Source: Candidatus Onthoplasma faecipullorum (GTDB lineage Bacteria > Bacillota > Clostridia > Christensenellales > UBA1242). Taken from it: a stretch of 64,000 nt of DNA. Position 1 is the first letter of the stretch; each line of letters begins with the position of its first letter. Below, piece by piece: positions 1 through 19,761 of this stretch. The notes under the pieces are model-generated. The model saw only the letters and a program-made list of their open reading frames with translations. It was not told where the DNA came from and did not search any database. The translations under genes and the position numbers were made by a program. The DNA lies in contig DWVI01000002.1 of NCBI GenBank assembly GCA_019120295.1, positions 10,754-74,753 on the forward strand. The letters are read 5' to 3'.

Positions 1-261
1 TGCCTTAGAAGAATTATCATATTGCGTTTTCATATTCACAAGGCTATTAATAATTCGAAAATATTCTTTTCCTGGAGCATCAAAACCCCAAACTTTACAA
101 CCATACAAACAAGTTTTAATTGCCTTAAAAAAGGTTGTTTTTCCAGCTCCATTTTTACCGCCAATCAAAACCATATTTTTATTTTTATTTATGGTTATTT
201 CAAACTCATTTTTATTAACATATGGACCTATATTATATAATTCAATTCTTTTGATCTTCAT
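1..261 (-). CDS. dndD: DNA sulfur modification protein DndD, first 87 codons only (gene runs off left edge of window)
   Basis: Not in ORF track because it is truncated. Reverse translation from ATG at 261 gives MKIKRIELYNIGPYVNKNEFEITINKNKNMVLIGGKNGAGKTTFFKAIKTCLYG... This is an SMC/DndD-type N-terminus with Walker A GGKNGAGKTT. The start overlaps the dndC stop by 20 nt and sits in the canonical position after dndB-dndC. Confidence 0.75.
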   Translation of the reverse strand, partial: MKIKRIELYNIGPYVNKNEFEITINKNKNMVLIGGKNGAGKTTFFKAIKTCLYGCKVWGFDAPGKEYFRIINSLVNMKTQYDNSSKA

Positions 262-1630
262 TTTTTAACCCCGATTTTATGGTTTCATAATGAATCCATT
301 CTTGATTGATTAATTTGTCAAATTCTTTTTGCACTTTAGATGATTTAGCAGCATATTTATTTGCATTAATAGATACAATTAATTTTGTTATTAGTTCAAA
401 AGGAATATCTGCTTCTTCTGCACCTTTCTTTAATTCTTCGACCACTTTATCTTCATAAAGCGGTTCCTTATATTCATCCCATGGTAACTTTTTTCCAAAA
501 ACTTCATAGTAGATATCAACTAATTTACGTCTTGTTAAATCTCCCTCGGAATCCCAGACCGTATCAATCATTTTTAGTTCATCTAACGTAATTAATTCAA
601 ACCCAGTTTCTTTTTCGACCATCAACAATCTTTTAAGAATCTCTTGCCTTGCTGACATTTTAAATGGTCCAAAACCATATTCACCATTTTCCTTTTGATA
701 AACCTTTCCATTTCTTCTTTTATTATCTCTAAAATTAGGGTCTTGCCTTATGCTAACTAACCAATTCCTAAAGTCCCTCAGTGGTATTAATTCAGTAGAT
801 CCATGATTTATAAAATTTTGCAAAGATTTATCTTCTTTAACAATTGTACAACACCAACAACCAAAGCGAGAATTACCTGTAACTGGAATTTTATTTTTAT
901 CAATCTCACCAATTACACTTTGTTCTTCGCCTAAATTTTCCCCTTGATACAAACTAAATAAATATTTCATATCAACGCCCCAACTACTGATGCCATTATT
1001 TTTTAATAAATATTCCCAAACTAAATCATTTTTTATTTCAGTTAAAGGATTATAAACATAAGCACCCTTTATATCACTATGTGGAATTAAAATTTTCCCT
1101 TCAATTTCCCTTGATGATATACTCCTCATACGAGCCAAACTTTCAGCCTTTCTAACCCCGAGCAATAAAACTACCTGACCATACTTTTCAATAATTTCAT
1201 TTGTATACTTGTTCATTGGAATAATCTTTAATCGCTCTGTACACCACCTAAAGCCAGGTGGTTCTGGAGTTGGATAACCTAGCCCAATAACTAAATTCCA
1301 ATATGATTGTGTAACATCGGGATAAATAATATCAGCCTGAATATTTGCATTTATTTTTTGAGAAAATTCGTTTATTTTTTGAGATGAAGTGTGCATATAT
1401 TTTTTTACTATTGGATTTTCAACGCCTGTATCGGAAGTAACAATGAAAATTTTTTTATTTCTTTCATATTCTGGTAATCTAGTAACAACCTCAATAACTA
1501 AAGAAACAAGTAAAGATGAATCTTTACCTCCACTATAACCAATTAACCAAGGTCTGTTATCATGTTTATAGACGAAAGTCATTTCTTCTATAATATCTTC
1601 AAATACTTTGAATTTATCTTTTGATTTCAT
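242..1630 (-). CDS. dndC: DNA phosphorothioation sulfurtransferase DndC (PAPS-reductase/PP-loop ATP pyrophosphatase family)
   Basis: 462 aa. PP-loop motif GYSGGKDSSLL near the N-terminus and Cys cluster RFGCWCCT. Size and position between the DGQHR protein and the DndD-like ATPase fit DndC. Start overlaps the dndB stop. Confidence 0.8.
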   Translation of the reverse strand: MKSKDKFKVFEDIIEEMTFVYKHDNRPWLIGYSGGKDSSLLVSLVIEVVTRLPEYERNKKIFIVTSDTGVENPIVKKYMHTSSQKINEFSQKINANIQADIIYPDVTQSYWNLVIGLGYPTPEPPGFRWCTERLKIIPMNKYTNEIIEKYGQVVLLLGVRKAESLARMRSISSREIEGKILIPHSDIKGAYVYNPLTEIKNDLVWEYLLKNNGISSWGVDMKYLFSLYQGENLGEEQSVIGEIDKNKIPVTGNSRFGCWCCTIVKEDKSLQNFINHGSTELIPLRDFRNWLVSIRQDPNFRDNKRRNGKVYQKENGEYGFGPFKMSARQEILKRLLMVEKETGFELITLDELKMIDTVWDSEGDLTRRKLVDIYYEVFGKKLPWDEYKEPLYEDKVVEELKKGAEEADIPFELITKLIVSINANKYAAKSSKVQKEFDKLINQEWIHYETIKSGLKNEDQKN

Positions 1631-2666
1631 TTTCCTTCACCTTCTCTTCTTTTGATAATTCGATCTTTAATTTTATCTTTAAGTAATTACATAATTTTAT
1701 TATTGAATCTTCATTGTTAACTATATTACCATGTTGATTTATTATTCTTCCAACCCACTCTGGATTACACCTAAACCAATCAATGGAATTTAACGATTTT
1801 AAGGTTGACAAATCCAAATTATTTTCATAAAAATATCTTCCTAATCTTCCAAAGGCATTTAGTGTTACACCTAATGTCAAGATATAATCTTCTCTCAATG
1901 ACTTTTTGTAAATTTCTTTATTTTCTAACATTTTCCATTCTTTAATACTATTAAAAATTGAATTCCAGTATTTGAACAAAAATTGCTCAGCATCTTCATC
2001 TTTATCATCTTTTAAAATACGTTTATTTGCCCTTAAAAAATTTGCTAAAGTAAATAATTTAGAAGAGTTCTTCCCTAAATTATCTTTCTCTTTGTCAATA
2101 TATTTGTTTAAAAAAGGTATTTTCTTTATAATATCTTTTACAATTTTCCCGATGTCATCTCGGTCATCATATAAAGTTGATAATGACTTTGTCGGTTTTA
2201 TAGCATATTTATTAAGGTCAGCAAACATTTGTTGACTACGTTTTAAACCTTCATCCTTAAAAAACACAATTGCTATTGTTTCTTTTGCCAGAGATCTATC
2301 CTCTTTTAATGCAGCTTCTATAGCCGCTTTTCTGTGTTGCCCATCATTAATCAGAAATACCGAATCCATATCAATTTTTAAAATTCCAATATTTTTATCA
2401 AGTTCTGAAGGAATAAACTCAAAATTTCCGTCTATCGAGGCTGATAATGCTGAAAAAACATATGTATTTCTATTTTTTAATATATAATCTCTAATCTCAG
2501 GAATTCTATTTTCATTTATACAACGTTGAGCACGGTATTCTGGGAGAATATAATCAACATCATTTTCAAATATTTTACACAACAGATTTAAAGGAACCAT
2601 AGCAATATAATACTCCCTATTTGCCTGTAATCCACTAACAACAGAAAATGTATAAGATAGCCCCAC
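1614..2666 (-). CDS. dndB: DndB-like DGQHR-domain protein (regulator of phosphorothioation)
   Basis: 350 aa containing the literal motif NDGQHR (FLINDGQHRKAAIEAAL). GTG start preceded by AGGAGG at 5 nt spacing. Immediately upstream of dndC. Confidence 0.8.
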   Translation of the reverse strand: MGLSYTFSVVSGLQANREYYIAMVPLNLLCKIFENDVDYILPEYRAQRCINENRIPEIRDYILKNRNTYVFSALSASIDGNFEFIPSELDKNIGILKIDMDSVFLINDGQHRKAAIEAALKEDRSLAKETIAIVFFKDEGLKRSQQMFADLNKYAIKPTKSLSTLYDDRDDIGKIVKDIIKKIPFLNKYIDKEKDNLGKNSSKLFTLANFLRANKRILKDDKDEDAEQFLFKYWNSIFNSIKEWKMLENKEIYKKSLREDYILTLGVTLNAFGRLGRYFYENNLDLSTLKSLNSIDWFRCNPEWVGRIINQHGNIVNNEDSIIKLCNYLKIKLKIELSKEEKVKENEIKR

Positions 2667-2684
2667 AAAATCCTCCTAAAGAAA

Positions 2685-2708
2685 ATACTTACGTATATAC
2701 GTAAGTAT
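2685..2708. promoter_or_regulatory. Perfect 24-bp palindrome ATACTTACGTATATACGTAAGTAT between the restriction-like cassette and dndB (candidate operator or attenuator hairpin)
   Basis: Read directly: the sequence equals its own reverse complement. It lies 19 nt upstream of the dndB GTG, just before the AGGAGG. On the minus strand it is followed by UUUCUUU. Confidence 0.5.
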
Positions 2709-2747
2709 ATCATATGTACTTATAAAAAGCAAATAAAAAACATATTT

Positions 2748-3269
2748 TTAAATATTCTCTAATGTAATATTCTTTAATAACTCTTCATAATTTGACTCTT
2801 CTAAAGACGAAAAGTATTTATACAATTCATCTAGTGCAATTAAGGATGATTGTGAATCAATATGTTTAAAAATTTGCTCAATCCCATAATTTGCAAATCC
2901 AGTCAAAAAAGAAGCTGGCGAAAATTTATTTAAAGAAAAATCTGGGTCAAATGCTAATTTTAATCTGTCATCAATACTTAAATTTATTGTTTTACTGTTT
3001 ATAATTGCATTTTGTAACATAAAATCTAATAGTTCACGCAAATCAATATTTGTCAGACTCATATAAGTATTTCTACCAATAGTTTTTTGTCCAAATGATT
3101 GTTCTTCTGAACTTGATAATGTTTTATCTTCTTTTATCCCAATAGAACATGCTAATATATATACATCAACCAAACGATTAAAAATATCTAATCCGTTCTT
3201 ACTGCATAATTCATTATCAGCTCTTTCCCATAATGGATGCGTAAGAATAATATCTGAATTTAAAATCAT
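2748..3269 (-). CDS. Hypothetical 173-aa protein, last gene of the restriction-like cassette (possibly a dnd-associated small protein)
   Basis: ORF whose ATG overlaps the stop of the upstream ATPase (ATGA, 4-nt overlap). No motif I can assign. Acidic C-terminus. Confidence 0.6.
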   Translation of the reverse strand: MILNSDIILTHPLWERADNELCSKNGLDIFNRLVDVYILACSIGIKEDKTLSSSEEQSFGQKTIGRNTYMSLTNIDLRELLDFMLQNAIINSKTINLSIDDRLKLAFDPDFSLNKFSPASFLTGFANYGIEQIFKHIDSQSSLIALDELYKYFSSLEESNYEELLKNITLENI

Positions 3270-5275
3270 TTTAATACACTCCTTTTCTCTAAAATTGCAG
3301 TAATATCATCTGGTCCACCTTTACTCAATGTTGCCCTCTCTTGGCTATCATTTTTAATTACATAAAAATCGTATAAACTTGTATCATCTAATAAAAATTT
3401 TATTTTATTTAAATCAAGTGTTAATAATATTGTTTGTTTTGAAACCTCAGGCAAAGTTTTAAATATATGCTCAGATTGTGCGTTTCCTGTAAAAGCAAAA
3501 GGAGCATCTATGATGATAGGATTTTCATTGTTCTCCATTTTACATTCTTGTAAAGCCTTAATTATACCAATAACATATGAATACTCATCGACTGCTAATT
3601 GTCCACCAGTTAGATACGTCGTTCTTAAAGAGAAATCATCATTAACAAATTGAATTTGATCAATATCTAATTCTGTTTGGGTTGTTAATTTTTTAAATAT
3701 ATCCCTAACACACTTGTTTAAGGTTAACTTAACCTCTTCTTCTCTTTGCTGTTTTTCATTTTCAAGATTAGCTCTAATTCCCTCAAAAAAATCAATTTTT
3801 TCAGTCATTTCAAATGAAATTTTTGAATTTCTTATTATATTATTTAATTGTTTGTTTGCCATTTCATAAATCTGTTTCTTTTGAGCGATTTTTCCTTCAT
3901 ATCCTGCTTTTTCTCTACTTAATGCATCAAGATCGATTTTTATTTGTTCTAGCTCTGAAACAAGATCCTTAGAATCATCCAAACGTTTAAGTTCTTCTTC
4001 ATTATCGTGAATATTTACTTCTAATTCTGATATTTTTTTCTCGCATGTTGTTATATTAGCTAAATATTTTTCATACTCCATAATCATAATTTGAGATAAA
4101 CTAATTTGGTGTTTTGATTTAGATACAAATTGCCCAAATTGATAATCATACGAATCTGGTGGCATTACACCAATTATAGCCTCTATTTTGTCTTTTGAAT
4201 CTTTGTCAAGCTCTCTGCCACAAACACATACATTTTTTTTGATAATCTCTTTTAATAGTGGCTTACTTAAATTCTCAAAAACATTTTTATATGAAGAATT
4301 GAACATCCTATTTTTCTCACGCAAAATAGAACTACTATCACTTGTTTTTCTTGACAGAAATAAATATGGATAATATTTGTAAAACAGATCTCCTATTTTA
4401 TGTCTGATTTCTTTTATCTCATTTTCATTTTTAGCAATAGCATCATAATTCAATTTTAATAATTGATTAATACTTTCTTTGTTATTAGCTTGTCCCAATA
4501 TTTTAAAAATTTCATCTCTTCTAGCATTTTTAATATCTATAGCAGACATCACATCCTTGCGCTTTTCTTTCATCAGTTCGATTGTTTCATACATCTCTTG
4601 TATATTCTCTTGCATCTCAGGTGCCGACATATTATTAATTGTCTGTGTCATCTTAGATGTCATTTCATTTTGATAATATCCAAGAACTGAATTTCTCTTG
4701 CTGTTTTTACCAAGATGATTTAAGGCATTAGCATAAGCATCCAAACCAAACAATTGATGAATAGCCTTTTTTAATTCCTTTGAGTCCAAAACGATATCTC
4801 TGGCTTTCTCCCCATCAAGCAAGAAATATTTTGACAATCCTTTTGGCAGTATCATATTAATTTTATTATAAATATCTCCGTTGTATGGTTGCCAATTGTT
4901 ATCGATTAAATGCATTAAGGTAAAGTCTGTTTTTTCAACTCTCGAGTTTTTTGCATTTAATGCATAACCAAAATACAGAACCTTAGAAAGACTATACTTA
5001 ACTCCAAGATGTTCAAAATCAATTTTCCCCGAAACTCTAACTTGTTCACCACTTTTGCACCCCGCAAAAGCACTTAAATTAAATAATGGTTTATCATTGT
5101 TTAAACCAAAATCAGGATCCCCATAAAACATCCATCTAAAAAATTGTAAAAGAGAAGATTTTCCATAACCTGAATCACCATATATTAGAGTGATTTTACC
5201 ATTGTTATTGAGAACTAATTCATTTTTACCATAATAACATCTAAAATTCTCAATTATAACATTATTTATTATCAT
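3266..5275 (-). CDS. SMC/DndD-like coiled-coil ABC ATPase (second DndD paralogue in the locus)
   Basis: 669 aa. N-terminus IENFRCYYGKNELVL...YGDSGYGKSSLLQFFRWMFYG (Walker A). Long K/E-rich coiled-coil middle with VCVCGRELD (hook-like Cys pair). C-terminal signature-like LTGGQ and Walker B PIIIDAPF. Confidence 0.75.
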   Translation of the reverse strand: MIINNVIIENFRCYYGKNELVLNNNGKITLIYGDSGYGKSSLLQFFRWMFYGDPDFGLNNDKPLFNLSAFAGCKSGEQVRVSGKIDFEHLGVKYSLSKVLYFGYALNAKNSRVEKTDFTLMHLIDNNWQPYNGDIYNKINMILPKGLSKYFLLDGEKARDIVLDSKELKKAIHQLFGLDAYANALNHLGKNSKRNSVLGYYQNEMTSKMTQTINNMSAPEMQENIQEMYETIELMKEKRKDVMSAIDIKNARRDEIFKILGQANNKESINQLLKLNYDAIAKNENEIKEIRHKIGDLFYKYYPYLFLSRKTSDSSSILREKNRMFNSSYKNVFENLSKPLLKEIIKKNVCVCGRELDKDSKDKIEAIIGVMPPDSYDYQFGQFVSKSKHQISLSQIMIMEYEKYLANITTCEKKISELEVNIHDNEEELKRLDDSKDLVSELEQIKIDLDALSREKAGYEGKIAQKKQIYEMANKQLNNIIRNSKISFEMTEKIDFFEGIRANLENEKQQREEEVKLTLNKCVRDIFKKLTTQTELDIDQIQFVNDDFSLRTTYLTGGQLAVDEYSYVIGIIKALQECKMENNENPIIIDAPFAFTGNAQSEHIFKTLPEVSKQTILLTLDLNKIKFLLDDTSLYDFYVIKNDSQERATLSKGGPDDITAILEKRSVLK

Positions 5276-5417
5276 TCTTCTTCATCTCCTCATAAATGCG
5301 AATAATTTTAGCCACCATTTGTTTATCATCACTTTTATTGATAGTCGAAATGTTTTCTTTTTCTAATTCTAAAATTTTTTCTTTGAACATTATTTGTTCA
5401 TTAGTTAAACTAGTCAT
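5262..5417 (-). CDS. 51-aa micro-ORF translationally coupled between the helicase and the ATPase
   Basis: Below the ORF-track size cut-off. MTSLTNEQIMFKEKILELEKENISTINKSDDKQMVAKIIRIYEEMKKNDNK. Its ATG overlaps the helicase stop (ATGACTAG) and its end overlaps the ATPase start by 14 nt. Charged helical composition. Confidence 0.4.
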   Translation of the reverse strand: MTSLTNEQIMFKEKILELEKENISTINKSDDKQMVAKIIRIYEEMKKNDNK

Positions 5418-7476
5418 CTAAATCTCCTCCATATGTAAACTCATTATTGAACAAAATATCTTTTTTTGTTAGATTGTATGAGATTAAAAGTTCTTCTAAT
5501 TTTTCATTTAAATCACTACTATTCAAAGCCAATCTACTGTACTCATAATAACGCCGTAATTCAATTTCAATAAATGATTTATTTTCAGTTGATGGTAATA
5601 CAATTACATCATAAATATCTGCTTTTTGTTTTTCTTTATGAGTATCTGGGTCTATATATAGTCTTAAAATTCTACCCCTTCTTTGAACGAACTCACGATA
5701 ATTATCATTACTTGATAATATTAATGCACTTTTAATTGATGGAATATTTATACCCTCGTCTAAACAACGAATTGCGACTAAATAATTTATTTTCCCTTTA
5801 TTAAAATTATCTATCAGTTGCAATCTCGTATTGATATCTTCTGAAGCTGTAAATTTTGAAGCTTTAACTGTAGGTCCTAATGGTAAAATCGAATTATTTA
5901 TAAGCGATAAAACATGCTCCAAATGCCTGATTTCTTCTTTTTCAGTACTTACTTTCCCATCGCTACAATATATTATAGTATGATCTTTATCTTCTATCTC
6001 ATTAAAAATTTTAGGAAGATTAGTAAGTTTTTCTTCTGCCATTGAAATCGCCTTCAATCGTCCCCTATATCCAATAGTAAATTTTTCTTCATCAATAATT
6101 GTATTAGTTTTTGGATCAAATGCTGACAACATCATTTGTGTATATTTTGCAAACTTACTTTCATCATCTTCAGTGGCATAGACAAACATAGGATGATATT
6201 CATAATTTACCAAATATTTCCCGATAGCCTTTTCAATTGGGAAGTCTATTACTTTTCCTCCAAACCAATTTAATAAAATCTTTGTTTTATCCTCATCATT
6301 TCCAAACACTGGAGTGGCGGATAATCCCAATTTATACACATATTTAGAAGATAATTCATCAGATATATTATTATAAAAATTATGGGCTTCATCAACAATT
6401 AGTAACTTTTTATATTCAATTTTATCATATAACTTTAAATATTTTTCTAAAAAGAAACTTTTAATAGTTGTTATTACAATAATTGGTTTATAAGATTCTT
6501 TTGAGGATAAGTAACTAGCATATATTTTTGTTTCTGCATCCTTTACTTCGCCATGAACACACACTATATGTGCATCTGGGAAAAATTCTTTTGCATCCTC
6601 TTCCCATTGCGAAACGAGATGTTTATAAGGAACAGCAATTACAGTAAAAACATTTTCTTGAGTAATAATGTCTTTAATGGTGTATAAAGAAGTTATTGTT
6701 TTTCCTGTACCTGTAGCCATTACAAAAAAACCAGTATGATTGTTATTGTTCCAGTTAGTTTTAGCCTCCTCCTGATATGGTCTCATTTTATATTTTATTT
6801 TCTTTCTAGAGTAGATCCCCGTGTGTTCTACTTTCTCAATTAGTTCTGACTTAAAGGCATCCATAAAATCAAACACCTGTAAGTCTTCATTTTCATTATT
6901 CCAAATACTATTAAACTCAGACGTTTCATCATGTATACGCCCATCATAGTCGAGCCAGCTTTTGTAAACTCTGATCTTTTCATAATTTGAATTATAGCCA
7001 TTAGCACTTTCATTATTTGAGCCAACGCAGGCAATAACATTACCTGAAAAATCTTCTAATATTGCAAGCTTATCATGATAAATTCCACCTTGTTTTAAAA
7101 CAATTTTAATGTCTACAATATCTTCTTTTATCAATAAATAGAGAATTTTGGCATTATCATCACTCAGTTCTAAAAGTGTGTTTTTAACTTCCTTGACAAA
7201 TTGATTTTTGACTATTTCTCTAGCATCATATCCTTGTTGAATTGCAAGAACATCCTCTTCACTCAATTTTGGTGAGGTTGCCAAATAAATATGTCCCCCA
7301 TTTTTAGCCATAGTTAATATTCCGTCACCAATAAAATTTAATGCAGAAGAACTAAAAAAACCAACACTGCGTTTATAAACTTTTGAGCAAGAAAGCAAAG
7401 GATTTATAATATCTGAAAAAGAATCCTCCCCAACACTTTTATATGAAATATTAATATCAAAATCCTTAAAGTTCAT
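5410..7476 (-). CDS. Phospholipase-D-family nuclease domain fused to SF2 (type III res-like, DEAH) helicase
   Basis: 688 aa. N-terminal HKD-type motif YHDKLAILEDFSGNVIACVGSNNES. Helicase motifs MATGTGKT (I), VDEAHN (II), LGLSATP (III) and QRRGRILR (VI). GGGGGA Shine-Dalgarno upstream. Confidence 0.8.
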   Translation of the reverse strand: MNFKDFDINISYKSVGEDSFSDIINPLLSCSKVYKRSVGFFSSSALNFIGDGILTMAKNGGHIYLATSPKLSEEDVLAIQQGYDAREIVKNQFVKEVKNTLLELSDDNAKILYLLIKEDIVDIKIVLKQGGIYHDKLAILEDFSGNVIACVGSNNESANGYNSNYEKIRVYKSWLDYDGRIHDETSEFNSIWNNENEDLQVFDFMDAFKSELIEKVEHTGIYSRKKIKYKMRPYQEEAKTNWNNNNHTGFFVMATGTGKTITSLYTIKDIITQENVFTVIAVPYKHLVSQWEEDAKEFFPDAHIVCVHGEVKDAETKIYASYLSSKESYKPIIVITTIKSFFLEKYLKLYDKIEYKKLLIVDEAHNFYNNISDELSSKYVYKLGLSATPVFGNDEDKTKILLNWFGGKVIDFPIEKAIGKYLVNYEYHPMFVYATEDDESKFAKYTQMMLSAFDPKTNTIIDEEKFTIGYRGRLKAISMAEEKLTNLPKIFNEIEDKDHTIIYCSDGKVSTEKEEIRHLEHVLSLINNSILPLGPTVKASKFTASEDINTRLQLIDNFNKGKINYLVAIRCLDEGINIPSIKSALILSSNDNYREFVQRRGRILRLYIDPDTHKEKQKADIYDVIVLPSTENKSFIEIELRRYYEYSRLALNSSDLNEKLEELLISYNLTKKDILFNNEFTYGGDLDD

Positions 7477-7486
7477 TATTATCCCC

Positions 7487-9430
7487 CTATTCTTTTATTC
7501 TTTTCATCAAGTTTACCATAATTTTTATTACTAAATGATTATATTCATTCATAAAATCATAATTATAATACCTATTTATATCTGCATTAAGGTCATTACT
7601 AGCACTAAATTTTTGTGATAAATCAGGAAACAAACCTTCTGCTTCTTTAATAAACATTTTAGAAAAATCACATTTAATATTATTGAGATTAGATTTTAAA
7701 ACATCTATCTTTCTATTAATATCAAAATTTTCTATGTCATTGTTTATATCCCTAGGAATAAATATAAAATTAAAAATACTATTTTTGTAATTTTTCAAAA
7801 TTTGTTTGTTATACAAAATCGTTTGGTTCTCATTACTCTTAAAAATTAAAAATTTACCAGACGCATTTATTAAAAAATGTTCTATTGAAAAATTATTTTT
7901 ATCAGAAAGGTAATTCTTCAATTTTTCAAAGTTTCCCCCTCTAATTACTACTTTGTCACCTTTTATTTGATAAAAATTATATATAGAAGCTAAGATTTGA
8001 GCATTATACCTTTGATCCGATTCATTATTTTCGTTTATACTAACTGCATAATTACCAATCGGATAACTACCACTGGTAAATGTTACGATTTCTTCCATTA
8101 TTTTATTATGAATAGAGTTTTCTTTTAAAATAGGGATTATATTGACTATATCTTTTTTATTTTTTAAGATTAAATACAAATTAATATAAAATATTATTGC
8201 ATATATGTCTTTTATCTGCTTTTTATTATACGAGATATCATTTGTCAATCCTGTTAAAGTTAGTATGTATTTTACAACAAGTGATTTAAAAATTACCTTA
8301 TCTCCCAAAAGTATTTTTGCCAAATAATTACTTATTACATCATATTCTGAACTGTCAATATTTCCCTTTTTTAGAAGTATTTTTAATGAATTTGGAACTC
8401 CAGTAGGACTTTGAATTATATCTCCAATAATGGCCAATGTGTTATTCATCTCCGTAAACATATTTTTAAAAAAACTATTACTATTAATAACTTTTACTAT
8501 GTGTTCTCCCGCAAAATATTTATCTCCGCCAATTTCAACATCATTAGATATTAAAAAATCATTACCAAACTTAATTTCTTTATATTTTTCATCTTTATAG
8601 ATATAACAATACATAAAATGTTGTAAAAAATCACATAAAGAATAATTCTTAAATGTTAAATCCCCATTGTTGATTCTTATTATATGTTGTTTAAATTTAG
8701 TCCATAATGGCTTCATCTCTGTCATACAGCCTAAAGAAAATAAATATCCCTTAAAAATATCTTCATTGTCAAGTTTTAACCCTTTCAGATTTACATCAAG
8801 AAAATATTGTATACTTTCTTTTTCCATATCATCATCAGATATAATTAAATTAAAATTGCTTTTACACAAATGATCATAAAACTTAATTGCTTTTGTTTTA
8901 CTATTTAAAAATTCAGATGAGATTATTTCTTCGTACAATTCTACATACTTTTTCTTTTGACTATACAAATCTCCTTCCTCAAGAATTCTCAAATTATTTT
9001 CATTAATATCGTCAATAGAATAATTATTGTTCTTTAAAATATTAAATGTTGTAAAATTTTCAGTAACTAATTCACAATTATTTAAAATATCAATGTCTTC
9101 GCCAAATTTTTTCTTTAAAAAATCTAAAATCATATACAAAATTGTAATTCTTTGTTGTCCATCAATTATTAAAAATGAATTTTTATCAAGTTCGCTATCT
9201 AATATTATGTTTCCCAAAAATTTATCACTCTCAGAAATATCCCTTATTAATTCAATGACTTGCTTCTTTTCCCATCTTAATTCCCTTTGAAAACTTGGTA
9301 TAATATATTTTCTATCTTTTTTAAGAGAAAATGCTTTGCTTTTGCCCTTTTCCCCTTCTGCAATCAACTCGGCATCTAAATTAGAAAAAAACTTTTTTAA
9401 ATTAATTATTGTTCCAATTATTCTTGACAT
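7487..9430 (-). CDS. DUF262 (ParB-like NTPase, DGQQR) + DUF1524-like His-Me nuclease; GmrSD/SspE-type architecture
   Basis: 647 aa. N-terminal IPSFQRELRW...IIDGQQRITILY and downstream FLDVNLKGLKLDNEDIFK, typical of DUF262. C-terminal FSIEHFLI and FNFIFIPRDINNDIEN resemble DUF1524. Confidence 0.75.
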   Translation of the reverse strand: MSRIIGTIINLKKFFSNLDAELIAEGEKGKSKAFSLKKDRKYIIPSFQRELRWEKKQVIELIRDISESDKFLGNIILDSELDKNSFLIIDGQQRITILYMILDFLKKKFGEDIDILNNCELVTENFTTFNILKNNNYSIDDINENNLRILEEGDLYSQKKKYVELYEEIISSEFLNSKTKAIKFYDHLCKSNFNLIISDDDMEKESIQYFLDVNLKGLKLDNEDIFKGYLFSLGCMTEMKPLWTKFKQHIIRINNGDLTFKNYSLCDFLQHFMYCYIYKDEKYKEIKFGNDFLISNDVEIGGDKYFAGEHIVKVINSNSFFKNMFTEMNNTLAIIGDIIQSPTGVPNSLKILLKKGNIDSSEYDVISNYLAKILLGDKVIFKSLVVKYILTLTGLTNDISYNKKQIKDIYAIIFYINLYLILKNKKDIVNIIPILKENSIHNKIMEEIVTFTSGSYPIGNYAVSINENNESDQRYNAQILASIYNFYQIKGDKVVIRGGNFEKLKNYLSDKNNFSIEHFLINASGKFLIFKSNENQTILYNKQILKNYKNSIFNFIFIPRDINNDIENFDINRKIDVLKSNLNNIKCDFSKMFIKEAEGLFPDLSQKFSASNDLNADINRYYNYDFMNEYNHLVIKIMVNLMKRIKE

Positions 9431-9708
9431 AAAGTACCTCTTTTGTTTTATGATTTTTAAACATTAAAATATTTTTCAGTGATTTTTAATTAAAAAAACA
9501 GCATTTAAACTAATTATTACATTCCCTATCATACAAGTTAGAATTTTCTTAATCCTTCATTAATAATATTCAAAACACATATTAATCAAGATTAATAATT
9601 GAAACATTTTTTATAGCCATTAATTTCAATTGGCACTTAATCCATAGTTAACTCATAAACAAGTGAATGTTTGTGAAATCTTCGTAAAATCTAATATATT
9701 ATATATTA

Positions 9709-9888
9709 CTACTTATCTAGGACAATCCTTCGCTCTGCTCTTTCTGGTTTTTTAGAGTTTTCAGGAATTATCCATGTCTTGCCTTTAAGCTCTGCACCTT
9801 TTACTCTACCTTGCTGGCAGTAGTTTCGTACTGACCTTTCACTTATCTTCCACTTCTTAGCTATTTCGCTAACTGTTGAAACACCCAT
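9709..9888 (-). CDS. Small helix-turn-helix DNA-binding protein (MerR/excisionase-like HTH)
   Basis: 59 aa, below the track cut-off. MGVSTVSEIAKKWKISERSVRNYCQQGRVKGAELKGKTWIIPENSKKPERAERRIVLDK. This pattern (ISxRSVxxYCxxGRIxGAxKxGKxWxIP) is common in Firmicutes mobile elements. The SD GGTGAGG is 12 nt upstream, which is sub-optimal. Confidence 0.55.
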   Translation of the reverse strand: MGVSTVSEIAKKWKISERSVRNYCQQGRVKGAELKGKTWIIPENSKKPERAERRIVLDK

Positions 9889-10053
9889 TAAACATAATAC
9901 CTCACCTTTTAGATATCTAAATTATAGCCGATAACGATATTTAAGTCAATTAATCCACAAAATAAAATTGCCGACATCGGCAATTTTATTAATACTACTC
10001 AACATATAAATATACAAAGCTATTTCAAAATATTGAAAAGCACATGCTTATAT

Positions 10054-10476
10054 TTATACTCTACCATACTTGTTTTGAATTTCTATCCTTACATCTTCTA
10101 CATTTTTGCTAACTTGAGATAATCTATCATAATCTCTCCGCAACTTATAACACTCATCTAAATATTCTTTACTATTTAAAAACTCTTTATTGTATATAAA
10201 ATTTTGATATGCCTCATGACACCAATGATTTCTTTTTTCTGTCATTTGCATTAAAAAATTATAATCGCTTGCAGATAAATATGGTTTTTTATCACTAAAA
10301 TCGAGTTCTTTTAATTTTTTTATTGTTTGTCCAAGAGACCACTTCTCAACTTTAATTAGATTGTCATAATAATCACCTTTAAGCATTGAAGCATAAATTC
10401 TTTTTATATCATGTTCAATTATTTGACAATGCATAATTGTTTTCCCAATAATATTATGAAATTCATCTAAATTCAT
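10054..10476 (-). CDS. Hypothetical 140-aa protein, possible HEPN-fold (R-x4-H) protein
   Basis: ORF with AGGAG Shine-Dalgarno. Contains EKRNHWCHEAY, i.e. RNxxxH followed by E.Y as in DUF86-type HEPN domains. No partner gene recognised. Confidence 0.55.
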   Translation of the reverse strand: MNLDEFHNIIGKTIMHCQIIEHDIKRIYASMLKGDYYDNLIKVEKWSLGQTIKKLKELDFSDKKPYLSASDYNFLMQMTEKRNHWCHEAYQNFIYNKEFLNSKEYLDECYKLRRDYDRLSQVSKNVEDVRIEIQNKYGRV

Positions 10477-10570
10477 AAAAGCTCCTTCATCAGTTTCATT
10501 ATAACATTATTATTTTAAAAATTCATCTTTTTGATAAGATTTTCTACATCAAAATTTTGTGTTACATTTA

Positions 10571-10852
10571 CTCCACGTAAAACCCATAAGCAAATAAGTG
10601 CCTATATGTAATTATCTCATGAGTGGGGATGTAGTCGATGAACTTAATGTGGTTTGAAAATTTTTGAATGGTGAGTGTCAAATTTTTGTTTTTGCCTTTG
10701 GGTCTTCCCCTTTTCTTGTTTTTGGTTTCAACCTTATCATTTGCAGTTCCAGTTTTATCAATTTCAGTTTCAACCTCCCCTTTTTCGGGATTGTCTTTTG
10801 ATATTTTTTCAAAAGGTTCGAATTCAGATACTCTACTTCCGCCAATAGAAAG
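10571..10852 (-). pseudogene. Start-less 94-codon reading frame (gene remnant?) with AT-hook-like KKRGRPKGK
   Basis: Open frame between an in-frame TGA (10853-10855) and TAA (10568-10570). LSIGGSRVSEFEPFEKISKDNPEKGEVETEIDKTGTANDKVETKNKKRGRPKGKNKNLTLTIQKFSNHIKFIDYIPTHEIITYRHLFAYGFYVE. No ATG/GTG start; the only TTG is at codon 58. Confidence 0.25.
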
Positions 10853-10854
10853 TC

Positions 10855-10894
10855 ATACGAAACAACCGTTAGGATTTGTTTCGTATTTTTATTT
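10855..10894 (+). terminator. Orphan intrinsic-terminator-like hairpin (11-bp stem ATACGAAACAA/TTGTTTCGTAT, 10-nt loop, then TTTTTATTT)
   Basis: Read directly. No credible plus-strand gene lies upstream of it. Confidence 0.4.
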
Positions 10895-11560
10895 GTGGGA
10901 TTGCTTTGGAATTGTTATAAATTTTGAAAGACCTAAAATAGAAAACTCATCTCATTTGAACTGGATTCATCAAAAAAGAGATGAGCATGGAACTTGGATT
11001 AAAAATAAGGTAGATTATTGAAAAATCTATCTTTTTATAATTCACTTATTACTTTAATTCTTATCATTTTAACAATCTCAAATTTACATAATGATTTAAA
11101 TTACAAAATCTGGAAGATTCATCTTATTCTTTATTTGTATAAATGTTTTCTATCTAAATATTTCTCTGATAAATAATTTTAAATTTTATTATATTTTATA
11201 AAATTAGACTTGTGAGAATTATTTGCCTTATTTTTATTAATTCACATCAAGTCTTTTTTATATATCACTTGTTGTATATACATTTGTATTTTTTTAAATA
11301 TTATTTAATTTGATTGTTGCATTTTTTCTTATCATTAATTATTATTTATTATTTATTTTTATCATTTAATTTATAATTATTGACTAATATATAATCATAT
11401 CAATTATTCTATTGTTTTTTAATGTTGCCAGTAATTAATATATTTATTTTTTATGTTTATGTTTGTTTATAAATTTACTACTAATTATCATTTGACTTAT
11501 AATTTTATTATTTGACTAGTATTTTATGTTAGATATATTTTATATTTTAATATATTTCAT

Positions 11561-11589
11561 TTGCTAATATTCTCTTTTTGTGATATAAT
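11561..11589 (+). promoter_or_regulatory. Sigma-A-type promoter for the lipoprotein gene: -35 TTGCTA, 17-nt spacer, extended -10 TGaTATAAT
   Basis: Consensus-like hexamers read directly, 24 nt upstream of the AAGGAGAGG SD and ATG at 11613. Confidence 0.5.
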
Positions 11590-11612
11590 ATAATATATAT
11601 AAGGAGAGGTGT

Positions 11613-13100
11613 ATGAAAAGAAAAATATTTAGTTTTGCTTTCGCTTTTATTTTATTACTCACCGGTAGTATTGTACTTTCTGCTTGTGGCAATAAAGATA
11701 AAAATGTTGCTTTAAATATTGAAAGCAAAGATTATGTTAGTGTTTATATGTTAAAAGACGGAACTTATTACATGTCGTCTCATTTAAAATATGGTTCGGA
11801 TCAAAAGTTTTATATTTCTCTTGTTGATTATTACGATATTGATAGTTTGAAAATTTATAATAACGGTTCAGAGATTAGTTGGACTAAAAATGAAAATTTG
11901 ACACCTTCTGAATCTGTAAGTGGAACACAAATAGAAGTGGGTCACTTTACCTTAACTGATATTAAGAGTGATGTAAATTTGACATTTAGTTGTGAAGAAA
12001 AATTGATTTCATTTGATGTTAAGGTTATTGATAGTTCAATAGGTGAAGATCACGTTGTAAGTTGGGGCGAATTGACAAAGGATCAACAATATATCTTAAA
12101 TTCATTGAGAATATTTGACAATAAAACTATTGGCAACATGTTATACGCTAATACTACTGCTACGGTTACTTATTCTGACATTATTGATGGAATAAAAATT
12201 ACGGACACAAGAAATAAATTTGGAGATATAAATAATCATTTTATAACAAATGGTAATTTAGATTTTATCTACGATTCTGAAAATAAAAACGAATATTTGC
12301 TATTTTTCCCTTTTGGTGTTAATTTTAACAATACAATTATGATTGATGTTAGCTATTTGAATTACAGTACATGGTATTTTGACAACAATAGTGGAGATAT
12401 TGTAAATATTAGCAGTGCTGACCCAACATACAATATAGGAGCGAATGAAAATAAGTCTTTTGTGATTACTATTGATGCTAAAAATGGAGTTGATATATCT
12501 AATGCTGAACTATATATAAATGGCACTAAAATTGATATGGTTGATAATAGTTACACAATCAATACAGCAATTAATACGCCTCTATCATACATAGAAAATT
12601 TTAATCAAGAATCAGCAAGTTTATATCTTGGTAAATATGAAATAGAATTGAAAAATGTAGATTTTTCAACTGCTACTAATATTTGTAAATTGGTAGGTGG
12701 AGCATATAATAGCGAATATGCTTATTACCATAACAATGATGAGACATATTATTTGTACGATCCGTCAGAAGATTACAAAAAAGCAAGTTTTGAATTTGAA
12801 TACGAATTTTATGATAGAGATTTACAAGATCCTAATGCTAATACTGATAAAACTTTGAAAATATTGATATACAATAATGATACAAAACAGACAGAAGAAA
12901 TAACAATAAATATTGATAAACATAAAGAGCTTTTCACTTTGGGTAATGGCAATTATTATAATATAGATAATGACTATGTGGAAAATTTGAGCATATATTT
13001 TAGTATTAGTACTGCCGATGAATTTGGTGGTATTAGCGGATTTAGTCTATCAGGTGATTTACCTATCATAAATGGCACTTACACTATTACTATTGAATAA
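11613..13100 (+). CDS. Lipoprotein of unknown function
   Basis: 495 aa. Signal peptide with lipobox MKRKIFSFAFAFILLLTGSIVLSACGN. N/D/Y/T-rich mature part. Strong SD. Confidence 0.8.
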   Translation: MKRKIFSFAFAFILLLTGSIVLSACGNKDKNVALNIESKDYVSVYMLKDGTYYMSSHLKYGSDQKFYISLVDYYDIDSLKIYNNGSEISWTKNENLTPSESVSGTQIEVGHFTLTDIKSDVNLTFSCEEKLISFDVKVIDSSIGEDHVVSWGELTKDQQYILNSLRIFDNKTIGNMLYANTTATVTYSDIIDGIKITDTRNKFGDINNHFITNGNLDFIYDSENKNEYLLFFPFGVNFNNTIMIDVSYLNYSTWYFDNNSGDIVNISSADPTYNIGANENKSFVITIDAKNGVDISNAELYINGTKIDMVDNSYTINTAINTPLSYIENFNQESASLYLGKYEIELKNVDFSTATNICKLVGGAYNSEYAYYHNNDETYYLYDPSEDYKKASFEFEYEFYDRDLQDPNANTDKTLKILIYNNDTKQTEEITINIDKHKELFTLGNGNYYNIDNDYVENLSIYFSISTADEFGGISGFSLSGDLPIINGTYTITIE

Positions 13101-13357
13101 TAAAAATATATAAAAAATAAATTAATTATAAAAAAACGAACAATAATAAAAAATTATAAACAAATATTGTATAAACAATATATAATAATATCATTTTATA
13201 GTTTGGATTAAATTGTTCGTTTTTTATGTATAAAAATTATTTTATATTTTAATATTTATCTTTATTTTTTTATTTTTAATATTTACATTTTATTTATTAC
13301 TTTATTGATAATAATCAGTTTTAAAATAAGTTTATTAAAAATAAATTTGTGAATAAA

Positions 13358-17943: not shown

Positions 17944-19020
17944 TTACATTGAAACTAATTCATTATCTTCAATTTTAAATCTCTTATCTGCTAACTTTTC
18001 GTAAACTTCCAAAGTTGGAGATTTATCCATAACAGCAATGATTGTTATTGAACCTGAATCTTTGCTATCACGAGCGAGTGTTAACATTGTTTTTGTAACA
18101 TTCTTTTCATCTGTGTCCAACGCGCTGATTGTTCGAATGTCGTCCACAATGATAACAACATCTTCTCCATTTTCCACAATTCTGCGCGCACGATTTCCAG
18201 CAAGTGAAACAATAAATTGTGTCATTTTCTTTTCGTCTAATAGTTTTGATGTAAACACTTCAACAGACTGATTTAATTCGTCTAATAAAGATATGTTTTT
18301 ATCTGTAATAGATGCGTTGATATATATCTTTCTAGCAATGTCACAACTGTTGGCAAGGTCAACACACATTTTGGTATTGTTCGAATTATCGCTACCATAA
18401 ATGTAGATAATTTCACCTTTTTTCATATTTAATTTATTAAATTTATCTTTCTTAAAAGATAATACCCTACTAATAGAAACGTGTTTTATATCATTAAAAT
18501 CTTTTCTATCTTTTGCCTTAAAGTTTTTAGCTAAGTTGCCGTTAATTTCATAGATTGTTTTAACAACTCCCTGCTCTGCAATTTCAACCAAAACTAAATC
18601 GCCAGTTTTTAAATTGTATTCGTCTATCAAAGATGTTGGCAAAATGTAACGCAAGTATTTGTCCTTATCCTTAAATAAAACACCAGTTGCACCATTTGAA
18701 TCAATGTCTACGTAACCTAAAACGGTTGTCATATCGTCGTACACAAAATCTGATTGCATTTGATTGAAGGATAAATAATTTGAAAAACCGCTATGGTCCA
18801 CTCCAAAACCATAAGCCTCTGCGAAAGGAAACCCTGTGTTTTTTGGTGGACGGCCTTGCCTACTCTTTGCAACATGAGGCGAAAGTTTTCCTTCCATGAT
18901 TAGCAGGATTTCATTAACTAATTGCTCTTTCTTTTTACTAGTTGGCGCTTCAACACCCGTTTTCCTAGCAACATTTCTAAGAGCATAGATACTTAATTCG
19001 TTTAACTGTTCTTTTGTCAT
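17944..19020 (-). CDS. Rho-like protein with degenerate ATPase core (no Walker A)
   Basis: 358 aa. Rho_N-like N-terminus (LNELSIYALRNVARKTGVEAPTSKKKEQLVNEILLI). OB/CSD-like segment (GYVDIDSNGATGVLF...YILPTSLIDEYNLKTGDLV). Walker-B-like VVIIVDDIRTISAL. Where Rho has PPKAGKT this protein has GSDNSNNTK. The C-terminus is shorter than Rho. Confidence 0.6.
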   Translation of the reverse strand: MTKEQLNELSIYALRNVARKTGVEAPTSKKKEQLVNEILLIMEGKLSPHVAKSRQGRPPKNTGFPFAEAYGFGVDHSGFSNYLSFNQMQSDFVYDDMTTVLGYVDIDSNGATGVLFKDKDKYLRYILPTSLIDEYNLKTGDLVLVEIAEQGVVKTIYEINGNLAKNFKAKDRKDFNDIKHVSISRVLSFKKDKFNKLNMKKGEIIYIYGSDNSNNTKMCVDLANSCDIARKIYINASITDKNISLLDELNQSVEVFTSKLLDEKKMTQFIVSLAGNRARRIVENGEDVVIIVDDIRTISALDTDEKNVTKTMLTLARDSKDSGSITIIAVMDKSPTLEVYEKLADKRFKIEDNELVSM

Positions 19021-19413: not shown

Positions 19414-19761
19414 TCACGTTGTTATTCCTAAACTAATCATTGTTGCAACTTCCACTCTTTGCATCATTTTTTCGTCTAACTCACTAACTTTTTCTTTTAG
19501 CCTTTGCTTATCAAGCGTTCTTAACTGTTCTAACAAAACAACACTATCTTTTGGAAGATTATATTTGTCTTTATCTAGTTCAATATGCGTTGGAAGTTTT
19601 GCTTTGCTAAGTTTGCTGGTAATTGCAGCAACTATAACTGTTGGACTATACTTATTCCCTACATCATTTTGCAACACCAAAACAGGACGAACACCACCCT
19701 GTTCGCTACCCACAACCGGGCTAAGGTCTGCATAATAAATTTCTCCCCTATATATGTCCAT
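19414..19761 (-). CDS. mazF: MazF/PemK (EndoA-type) endoribonuclease toxin
   Basis: 115 aa. [46 protein letters not shown] is the classic MazF/NdoA signature. Confidence 0.9.

Follow-up and report, generated by a model that had tools for sequence, protein, structure and literature searches.

We analysed a stretch of 64,000 nucleotides from Candidatus Onthoplasma faecipullorum (contig DWVI01000002.1, positions 10,754 to 74,753 of the forward strand; hereafter the window), whose left end carries dnd genes for the phosphorothioate (PT) modification of DNA and, directly upstream of them, a group of genes in the position of a PT-dependent restriction partner. The list of open reading frames (ORFs) reproduces all eight co-directional minus-strand ORFs between positions 1 and 9430 that had been described in an earlier reading made from the letters alone (hereafter the sequence-only reading). 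In the direction of transcription these are a gene for a 647-aa protein, pbeA, pbeB, pbeC, pbeD, dndB, dndC and the 5' end of dndD; the names are those assigned below. The start/stop overlaps given in that reading follow from the ORF coordinates: 8 nt for pbeA/pbeB, 14 nt for pbeB/pbeC, 4 nt for pbeC/pbeD (ATGA), 17 nt for dndB/dndC and 20 nt for dndC/dndD. The 647-aa gene and pbeA are separated by 10 nt (7477–7486), and the 81-nt gap between pbeD and dndB (2667–2747) does hold the perfect palindrome that had been noted there. The GC content of the island region is 22–31%.

Concerning the modification genes, both dndB (1614–2666, minus strand, 350 aa; a ParB-superfamily DGQHR regulator) and dndC (242–1630, minus strand, 462 aa; a PP-loop/PAPS-reductase-type sulfurtransferase) score above the curated cut-offs of NCBIfam (TIGR03233: 403 vs 328 bits; TIGR03183: 353.5 vs 290.4 bits, respectively). 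DndB also matches the Pfam domain DndB (PF14072, E-value 2e-111) and the PADLOC DndB model (E 6e-126), and DndC matches PADLOC DndC (E 5e-121) and Pfam PAPS_reduct. The dndD gene leaves the window after its first 87 codons (1–261, minus strand); the truncated product matches TIGR03185 (E 4e-22 over model positions 1–85) and PADLOC DndD (E 3e-21). The left-hand genes are thus dndB, dndC and dndD, as the sequence-only reading had proposed, and for the genes at 242–2666 the profile searches confirm DndB and DndC rather than refute them. The island can be followed past the left edge in six sister metagenome contigs (L001–L006), which encode a DndC 100% identical to that of the window and a 690-aa DndD with a 100% identical N-terminus, followed by a DndE of 124–126 aa (PF08870, E 2e-22). 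A 273-aa protein is encoded directly after dndE in L001 (13822–14643), L003, L004, L006 and a related locus, L014; it is split into ORFs of 106 and 160 aa in L002 and L005, and it matches nothing in PADLOC, Pfam or NCBIfam at E<=10. No dndA (Aminotran_5 gene) follows dndE in L001–L006 or L014; loci at a greater distance, namely L010, L028, L109 and L110, do have a dndA. Both dndE and dndA had been expected beyond the left edge; the former is found there in the sister contigs, and in place of the latter stands the 273-aa gene. Candidates for dndA or another cysteine desulfurase at 25.8–29.2 kb of the window were rejected, as they are glycolytic enzymes. A linked DndA is optional for PT modification; IscS or NifS can substitute.

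Of the five genes that precede dndB, four encode PbeABCD, as judged from their profile matches, motifs, order and sizes. This PT-dependent system was characterised experimentally in Haloterrigena jeotgali A29 (Xiong 2019, PMC6459918) and has been re-annotated as a CxC-ABC (ATP-binding cassette) ATPase/DndE-cognate system (PMC10853773). The sequence-only reading did not recognise the five genes as a characterised system, although PbeABCD stood in its own list of restriction partners; four of the five make up a set that already has a published name, and the fifth is a separate matter. The 688-aa product of pbeA (5410–7476, minus strand) is an HKD (phospholipase D, PLD) nuclease fused to a superfamily 2 (SF2) helicase, with the Pfam domains PLDc_2, ResIII and Helicase_C, and it matches PADLOC PbeA with an E-value of 2e-181 (residues 3–659, against a model of 672 positions). 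Its motifs are intact: one HxK at residue 134 with GSNNES, and GTGKT (256), DEAH (362), SAT (386) and QRRGR (598), helicase motifs I, II, III and VI being preserved. The protein also matches TIGR04095 (E 6e-103, 345 bits, under the 600-bit cut-off of NCBIfam), so one of the two TIGRFAMs families suggested in the sequence-only reading, 'DNA phosphorothioation system restriction enzyme', fits it below cut-off; the other, 'dnd system-associated protein 4', is not supported for the 173-aa protein, for which NCBIfam gives no match.

For the 669-aa product of pbeC (3266–5275, minus strand) the eleven top PADLOC matches are all PbeC (best E 3e-55, full length; DndD 2e-24), and the Pfam match is AAA_23/SMC_N. 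The Pfam domains bear out both the PLD-nuclease/SF2-helicase fusion and the SMC-like ATPase of the sequence-only reading. PbeC contains a Walker A motif (GDSGYGKS from residue 33), a signature motif (LTGGQ, 557) and a Walker B motif (IIIDAP, 587), and midway along the coiled coil, at residue 350 of the 669, it has C-V-C-G. All four PbeC proteins that were compared carry the CxC motif, which the four DndD proteins lack; PbeC is defined as a CxC-type coiled-coil ABC ATPase, and the CxC zinc hook separates it from DndD (PMC10853773).

The two smaller proteins, PbeB (5262–5417, minus strand, 51 aa) and PbeD (2748–3269, minus strand, 173 aa), have no matches in PADLOC, Pfam or NCBIfam at E<=10. The assignment of pbeB is a test of position and size, no sequence profile existing for it: wherever relatives of PbeA and PbeC adjoin, in 48 of 48 loci, a same-strand ORF of 30–110 aa occupies this slot. 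The window protein has no detectable sequence similarity even to its counterpart in L012, which is expected of the 'rapidly evolving small protein' described in the PbeB position and proposed to be a releasable inhibitor (PMC10853773). In H. jeotgali, PbeB has 66 aa and PbeD 152 aa, and protection suffers when any one of the four is deleted (PMC6459918). PbeD is assigned as a putative DndE-cognate DNA-binding protein by position, size and structural model. It has 237 homologues; of the 120 listed, not one has a recorded Pfam domain. Its AlphaFold model (mean predicted local distance difference test score, pLDDT, 84.9) contains two beta-alpha-alpha repeats; the top PDB match is the DndE of E. 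coli B7A (4lrv_G; probability 0.77, template modelling (TM) score 0.52 on the target, E 0.37), and the DndE of N. bangense (7x4e) also ranks high. This agrees with the published description of PbeD as a DndE cognate (PMC10853773). Beside the pbe genes of two related loci, a protein of ~886 aa with RNA_pol_A_CTD and Sigma70_r4 matches is encoded directly upstream of pbeA and overlapping it (L012 1–346, L026 12643–15303); nothing in PADLOC matches it, and it might be an additional component associated with Pbe.

The fifth gene (7487–9430, minus strand), here called dndI-like, encodes the 647-aa protein, in which a DUF262/ParB-type nucleoside triphosphatase (NTPase) domain is followed by a putative, divergent DUF1524 His-Me finger. 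The sequence-only reading had named it a DUF262+DUF1524 protein. The first domain is confirmed by Pfam GmrSD_N (DUF262, E 1e-23); the second is weakly supported, since PF07510 (GmrSD_C/DUF1524) matches eight of 39 full-length family members (best E 6e-4) and not the window protein itself. In these 39 members, which are 30–47% identical, DGQQR (90–94), E517-H518, N554 and N563 are invariant, and the structural model (pLDDT 88.7, predicted TM score 0.86) has beta-beta-alpha elements at 515–548. Among the PADLOC models, the window protein matches Orf5 (= DndI) with E-values of 1e-9 to 1e-11 (best 5e-11, over residues 36–276) and SspE in its N-terminal domain with 1e-5. All 39 members match HEC-06, Orf5 (DndI) and SspE weakly (best E 4e-21, 2e-17 and 1e-9, respectively). 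With the family profile, SspE-type chains are hit over ~70 residues around DGQQR (20yv, E 2e-5; 6jiv, E 4e-4), the DGQQR core of the family aligning with SspE residues 24–117 (E 4e-4), and BrxU (7P9K) reaches an E-value of only 0.19.

An exhaustive profile search with the family gave 303 clusters (50% identity) at E<=1e-30 vs 15,210 at E<=1e-3, the latter being the wider DUF262 superfamily. Its members were sampled mainly in Firmicutes-type contigs. A single-sequence scan of the GTDB species genomes with the 647-aa protein returned just three remote DUF262 fragments, and phmmer of the same sequence against PDB gave nothing at E<=1. We call the protein DndI-like in the sense that it shares the apparent architecture and the genomic habit of DndI while belonging to a distinct family. 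The Ssp-type sensor/nickase architecture suggested earlier corresponds to the DndI/SspE architectural type; there are no ssp genes at the locus.

The genomic context of the family was compared in ten relatives; one of them (L025) lies at a contig edge and is uninformative. In all nine informative contexts, those of 32–40%-identical relatives, dnd genes are found within 10 kb of the family member, five times with PbeABCD and four times with DndFGH or DndFGH-like genes. Among the former, the family member stands before pbeA (L014), upstream of pbeA with two genes between (L026), after dndE of a pbeABCD-dndBCDE block (L012/L013), between pbeD and dndC (L109), or before dndC with pbeABCD downstream (L027). 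Among the latter, it lies directly after dndFGH (L110) or after DndFGH-like genes with one or two genes between (L028, L010), in these three cases convergent with dndBCDE-dndA, or else before DndFGH-like genes and dndB (L011). The DndFGH of L110 is a true one (DndF E 7e-186, DndG 5e-125, DndH 0); the call in L010, L011 and L028 is based on protein sizes, plus DUF87 matches in L010 and L028.

Looking from the side of the pbe genes, we examined 61 loci with PbeA relatives in GTDB species representatives. A strong DndC is found nearby in 19 of the 61; a strong member of the 647-aa family is found in none, with just four weak generic DUF262 matches. The closest representative, L029 (Lachnospiraceae), carries pbeABCD-dndBCDE in the window order without the family gene. 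Since none of the 61 PbeA loci carries a strong family member, the conserved unit is one of four genes, and the DUF262 gene tracks dnd rather than pbe. On this comparison of neighbourhoods we regard the 647-aa gene as a separate dnd-linked accessory and not as the fifth part of one cassette; the single conserved five-gene cassette of the sequence-only reading comes apart at this point.

Two other features of these contexts were observed. A gene for a HARE-HTH (helix-turn-helix) protein, usually fused to an Mrr_cat nuclease, adjoins the DndI-like gene in five of the nine contexts (L026 11801–12619; L027 9145–9960; L028 9103–9954; L109 11984–12895; L010 8899–9396), and the protein of L028 matches PADLOC mREase_IV with an E-value of 3e-50. 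The window lacks this gene and has an HTH_17 gene in its stead. In L027, a gene call of 896 aa (10001–12691) has both GmrSD_N and DndB Pfam matches and is followed by a 366-aa protein of no family and dndC; the call is either a real DndI-like/DndB fusion or an artefact of gene calling or a frameshift.

The sequences of close relatives point to an island that is mobile and modular. In the sister contigs L001–L006 the HTH_17 gene, the 647-aa gene, pbeABCD, dndBCDE and the 273-aa gene recur at 97–100% protein identity; the flanks differ among these contigs, and large serine recombinases are found in those of L001 and L003. The order of the 647-aa gene and pbeABCD recurs in L001–L006 and L014. In L014, window positions 1–7525 are matched at 99.3% DNA identity, whereas 7526–9739 (L014 9203–11908) is unrelated; the allele of the DUF262 gene found there has 40% protein identity and keeps all catalytic motifs. 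One breakpoint falls within the DUF262 gene, 39 nt from its 3' end, and the other within the upstream HTH gene, inside which DNA identity returns to 88%. On the evidence of these breakpoints only the effector seems to have been exchanged, as a clean cassette, and since the allele differs inside an otherwise identical island, the DUF262 gene can be described as an exchangeable cassette.

The first gene of the conserved island block is the HTH_17 gene (9709–9888, minus strand), whose 59-aa product (Pfam HTH_17, E 8e-7) is a probable regulator or excisionase-like protein; it has the same position in L001–L006. In L014 its counterpart is an 81%-identical segment that forms the N-terminus of a 295-aa HTH_17+Fic protein. 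A putative promoter (TTGACT-N17-TATAAT, 9921–9949, minus strand; 11 of 12 positions match) is predicted upstream of the gene, just downstream of a 14+14-nt hairpin at 9961–9990. The HTH_17 protein also weakly matches mad1 of the MADS defence system in PADLOC (E 3e-5).

The palindrome between pbeD and dndB (2685–2708, ATACTTACGTAT/ATACGTAAGTAT, 12+12 nt) is 100% complementary and unique in the window, and it had no match in 100 shuffles at up to three mismatches. Read towards dndB on the minus strand, the candidate promoter/operator region (2672–2732) consists of a -35 element TTGCTT (2732–2727), a 17-nt spacer and a -10 element TATACT (2709–2704), which the palindrome (2708–2685) overlaps; a T-run and a ribosome-binding site AGGAGG (2677–2672) follow. 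The core ATACTTA[AC]GTA, again in palindromic arrangement, overlaps the -10 of a TTGACx-N17-TATACT promoter that precedes dndB in L085, L029, L026 and L012. The DndB proteins of these four loci are just 52–57% identical, and the outer arms of the palindrome vary from locus to locus. Because the core is conserved while the arms vary, the palindrome is read as a protein-binding site; it is probably the operator of DndB, a prediction in keeping with the DndB of S. enterica, an autorepressor that binds palindromes in its own promoter (PMC4507180). The dndBCD genes are accordingly predicted to be transcribed separately from pbe, with a promoter and a palindromic operator of their own. In L012 and L029, the extended GC-rich arms with the T-run would also end the upstream pbe operon. 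The palindrome was considered as a Salmonella DndB box (TACG-N10-CGTA) and rejected: the window has TACG-N6-CGTA, and the relatives have TTAAGTA and not TTACGTA. The likeness in the CG dinucleotides is probably coincidental, the conserved core being ATACTTAnGTA. This gives a conserved candidate DndB operator (core ATACTTA[AC]GTA over the -10) for Firmicute dnd operons.

As regards known systems, the closest parallel is H. jeotgali's DndCDEA-PbeABCD locus, with which the window shares the A-B-C-D order of co-directional, overlapping pbe genes beside dnd modification genes. The window locus differs in being bacterial and in having dndBCDE (with dndB and without dndA) instead of dndCDEA; pbe lies upstream of dnd here and downstream there, and the window adds the DndI-like and HTH genes. 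The Pbe system has been surveyed in hundreds of bacteria, Firmicutes included (PMC6459918, PMC10853773). A second parallel is the IscS-DndBCDE-DndI system of S. enterica Cerro 87, in which DndI (orf5), a PT-sensing ATPase/nickase with DUF262+DUF1524, was characterised in 2024 (PMC11662687; PMC4198939). The ATPase of DndI is stimulated by PT, and its PT-sensing patch is hydrophobic and contains Tyr. Like DndI, the window protein has DUF262 with DGQQR at its N-terminus and, putatively, a DUF1524-type H-N-N finger (divergent in the window) at its C-terminus, within ~600–656 aa; family members in L110, L028 and L010 follow dndFGH near dndBCDE as in Salmonella dndFGH-dndI; and the window island, having no linked dndA, implies a housekeeping desulfurase, as in IscS-DndBCDE-DndI. 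Unlike in Salmonella, the partner in the window is PbeABCD and not DndFGH, and the similarity to Orf5 is N-terminal only.

SspE (6JIV/7DRS), which senses PT, is of the same architectural type, a DUF262 NTPase with a DUF1524 nickase; unlike the window protein it has ~770 aa, and the similarity is limited to ~70 residues. No Ssp proteins were found by PADLOC among the eight window proteins, the sole related match being a weak one to SspD within DndC. The locus resembles DndFGH systems in that the right-hand genes hold the restriction-partner position beside dndBCDE and in that relatives of the 647-aa gene co-occur with DndFGH. That these genes occupy this position and are not DndFGH had been stated in the sequence-only reading and is upheld: none of the eight window proteins matches the DndF, DndG or DndH profiles, which true DndFGH hits at E-values of 7e-186 to 0. 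The 647-aa family also resembles the GmrSD/BrxU Type IV enzymes in its GmrSD_N and, weakly, GmrSD_C domains.

Based on the above, window 1 to ~9,950 (minus strand) is very likely the larger part of a mobile PT defence island composed of DndBCDE, PbeABCD and a DndI/SspE-type protein, carried on the chromosome of a low-GC, as yet uncultured Clostridia bacterium of the animal gut. The catalytic motifs of PbeA, PbeC and the 647-aa protein are intact. By analogy with the characterised homologues, from which the whole mechanism is inferred, DndC, DndD and DndE, supplied with sulfur by a housekeeping cysteine desulfurase, would write PT at a short consensus in the host DNA, and DndB would repress the operon through the palindrome overlapping the -10. 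The PT dinucleotides to be expected are G_PS_A and G_PS_T, which are found in gut Clostridiales with dndCD (PMC12914056). PbeC and PbeD would scan DNA and, with PbeA and PbeB, block the replication of DNA without PT. The DUF262/His-Me protein would act independently as a PT-sensing NTPase/nickase that spares PT-marked self DNA, so that the island would hold two different effectors reading one PT mark. The locus is explained by known systems; the combination is not specifically described in the literature consulted on these systems, and it fits the "mix and match" picture that has been published for dnd loci.

Several results weigh against parts of this reading. PT, its sequence motif and phage protection at the locus are argued from homologues. 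The mechanism of Pbe is itself disputed, a replication block without cleavage (Xiong 2019, PMC6459918) standing against cleavage or suicide (PMC10853773), and many Pbe systems occur without dnd genes (PMC10853773). The structural match of PbeD to DndE, though ranked first, has an E-value of 0.37 and is not statistically significant. Concerning the DndI-like protein, the PADLOC models of Orf5/DndI, SspE and HEC-06 cover only the N-terminal domain (that of Orf5 ending at ~residue 276), the family profile misses DndI (PDB 9JFL) at E<=10 although this chain is in the library searched, and a Foldseek search of the confident 647-aa model against PDB found no DUF262 structure (best E 0.4, TM<0.2); the family is not demonstrably orthologous to characterised DndI. 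The profile scan, which covered part of the window ORFs, detected no cysteine desulfurase. At dndB, the promoter scan made no call, and the -35 element matches at three of six positions; the palindrome hairpin with its T-run was scored terminator-like by the scan, and the palindrome could be merely the terminator of the pbe operon.

Three other explanations were considered. The first to be weighed takes the five genes upstream of dndB as one new obligate five-component PT-dependent restriction complex, unlike any named system. It draws on their co-directional, tight packing (10 nt from the 647-aa gene to pbeA, overlaps elsewhere) and on the recurrence of the same five-gene order in L001–L006 and L014; these copies, however, are near-identical versions of one element and not independent evidence. 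Four of the genes are PbeABCD on the four lines of comparison given above, independent loci place the 647-aa family elsewhere or with dndFGH and not pbe, the 61 PbeA loci hold no strong family member, the 647-aa allele has been swapped within an otherwise identical island, and the PbeABCD of H. jeotgali protects without such a gene (PMC6459918). We consider a five-component complex highly improbable. A reading of the 647-aa protein as an ordinary Type IV enzyme of the GmrSD/BrxU kind, directed against modified phage DNA (e.g. glucosyl-hydroxymethylcytosine) and sitting in a defence island without a functional tie to PT, is also quite unlikely. GmrSD/BrxU Type IV restriction enzymes target modified cytosines, and to our knowledge they are not dnd-linked. 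Such an enzyme would fit the best Pfam match (GmrSD_N), the best PADLOC matches (the HEC-06 candidate models), the frequent HARE-HTH/Mrr_cat Type IV-like genes beside family members, and the allele swap, which shows movement independent of the dnd and pbe genes. The nine contexts, however, are all dnd-linked whatever the partner, position or orientation, a pattern not to be expected from chance co-location in defence islands; one of them copies the dndFGH-dndI arrangement, and both characterised dnd- or ssp-linked proteins of this architecture, DndI and SspE, sense PT.

The remaining explanation leaves the DndI-like protein in place and concerns Pbe: PbeABCD would read no PT and would be an autonomous abortive-infection or suicide module, as has been argued for the CxC-ABC/DndE-cognate system (PMC10853773), with dndBCDE serving the DndI-like nuclease or roles other than defence. 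This accords with the 58% of PbeAC pairs that have no dndCD within 10 kb (PMC6459918) and with the 19 of 61 PbeA loci that have a strong DndC; the intact HKD motif of PbeA argues for DNA cleavage, and PbeB has been proposed as a releasable inhibitor (PMC10853773). Against this, the sole tested system protected only with PT modification and the full set of four pbe genes, and virus carrying PT escaped it (PMC6459918). Also, pbeABCD and dndBCDE move as one block at 99–100% identity in the window lineage, and the pbeABCD-dndBCDE order recurs at 47–61% protein identity in L012 and L029. An autonomous Pbe module is on this balance rather unlikely, and the PT defence island with two effectors is the explanation that we prefer.

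The island offers a compact, intact bacterial case of one PT writer with two effectors, which suits the study of how work is divided between them. Conceptually it adds little: surveys of PbeABCD-Dnd cover hundreds of genomes, and nucleases of the DndI type are characterised. What is modestly new is the uncatalogued dnd-linked DUF262 family, its allelic exchange and the conserved candidate DndB box. The dnd-linked DUF262/His-Me family is weakly detected by the current sets of defence-system profiles. A broader proposal, which we put forward tentatively and hold to be doubtful, is that these ~650-aa proteins constitute an effector clade of their own, uncatalogued and obligately linked to dnd, and serve as generic, exchangeable PT readers/nickases for PbeABCD or DndFGH islands. 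If this were true, the swap of alleles with 40% identity would reflect an arms race in which the effector diversifies against phage inhibitors and the PT writer remains unchanged.

With respect to the surroundings of the island, synteny between the window and related genomes ends at ~13.2–13.4 kb, beside a pyruvate:ferredoxin oxidoreductase (PFOR) gene whose closest relative is 92% identical. A plasmid origin was rejected: PLSDB holds no DNA match, and the protein matches there are to remote DUF262 only. A chromosomal origin is confirmed by the housekeeping context at ~25.8–54 kb. The stretch at 9990–13350 is very AT-rich (20–28% GC), and nothing corresponding to it is seen in the flanks of the related genomes; of its ORFs, those of 140 and 117 aa belong to no family and that of 495 aa has weak lipoprotein-signal-like matches. 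A few kb from the island, at 19414–19761, there is a MazF/PemK toxin gene (E 8e-36), and at 17944–19020 a 358-aa protein with a Rho_N domain is encoded, whose weak Rho-like similarity lies far under the Rho cut-off. The housekeeping genes at ~25.8–54 kb include pgk-tpi-gpmI (25.8–29.2 kb) and TrpS/TyrS-type tRNA synthetase genes, and runs of ORFs at 33–54 kb have sizes typical of EF-G, EF-Tu and ribosomal protein operons, an assignment by size only. RF-1 and Mur ligase genes are found at 57–61 kb.

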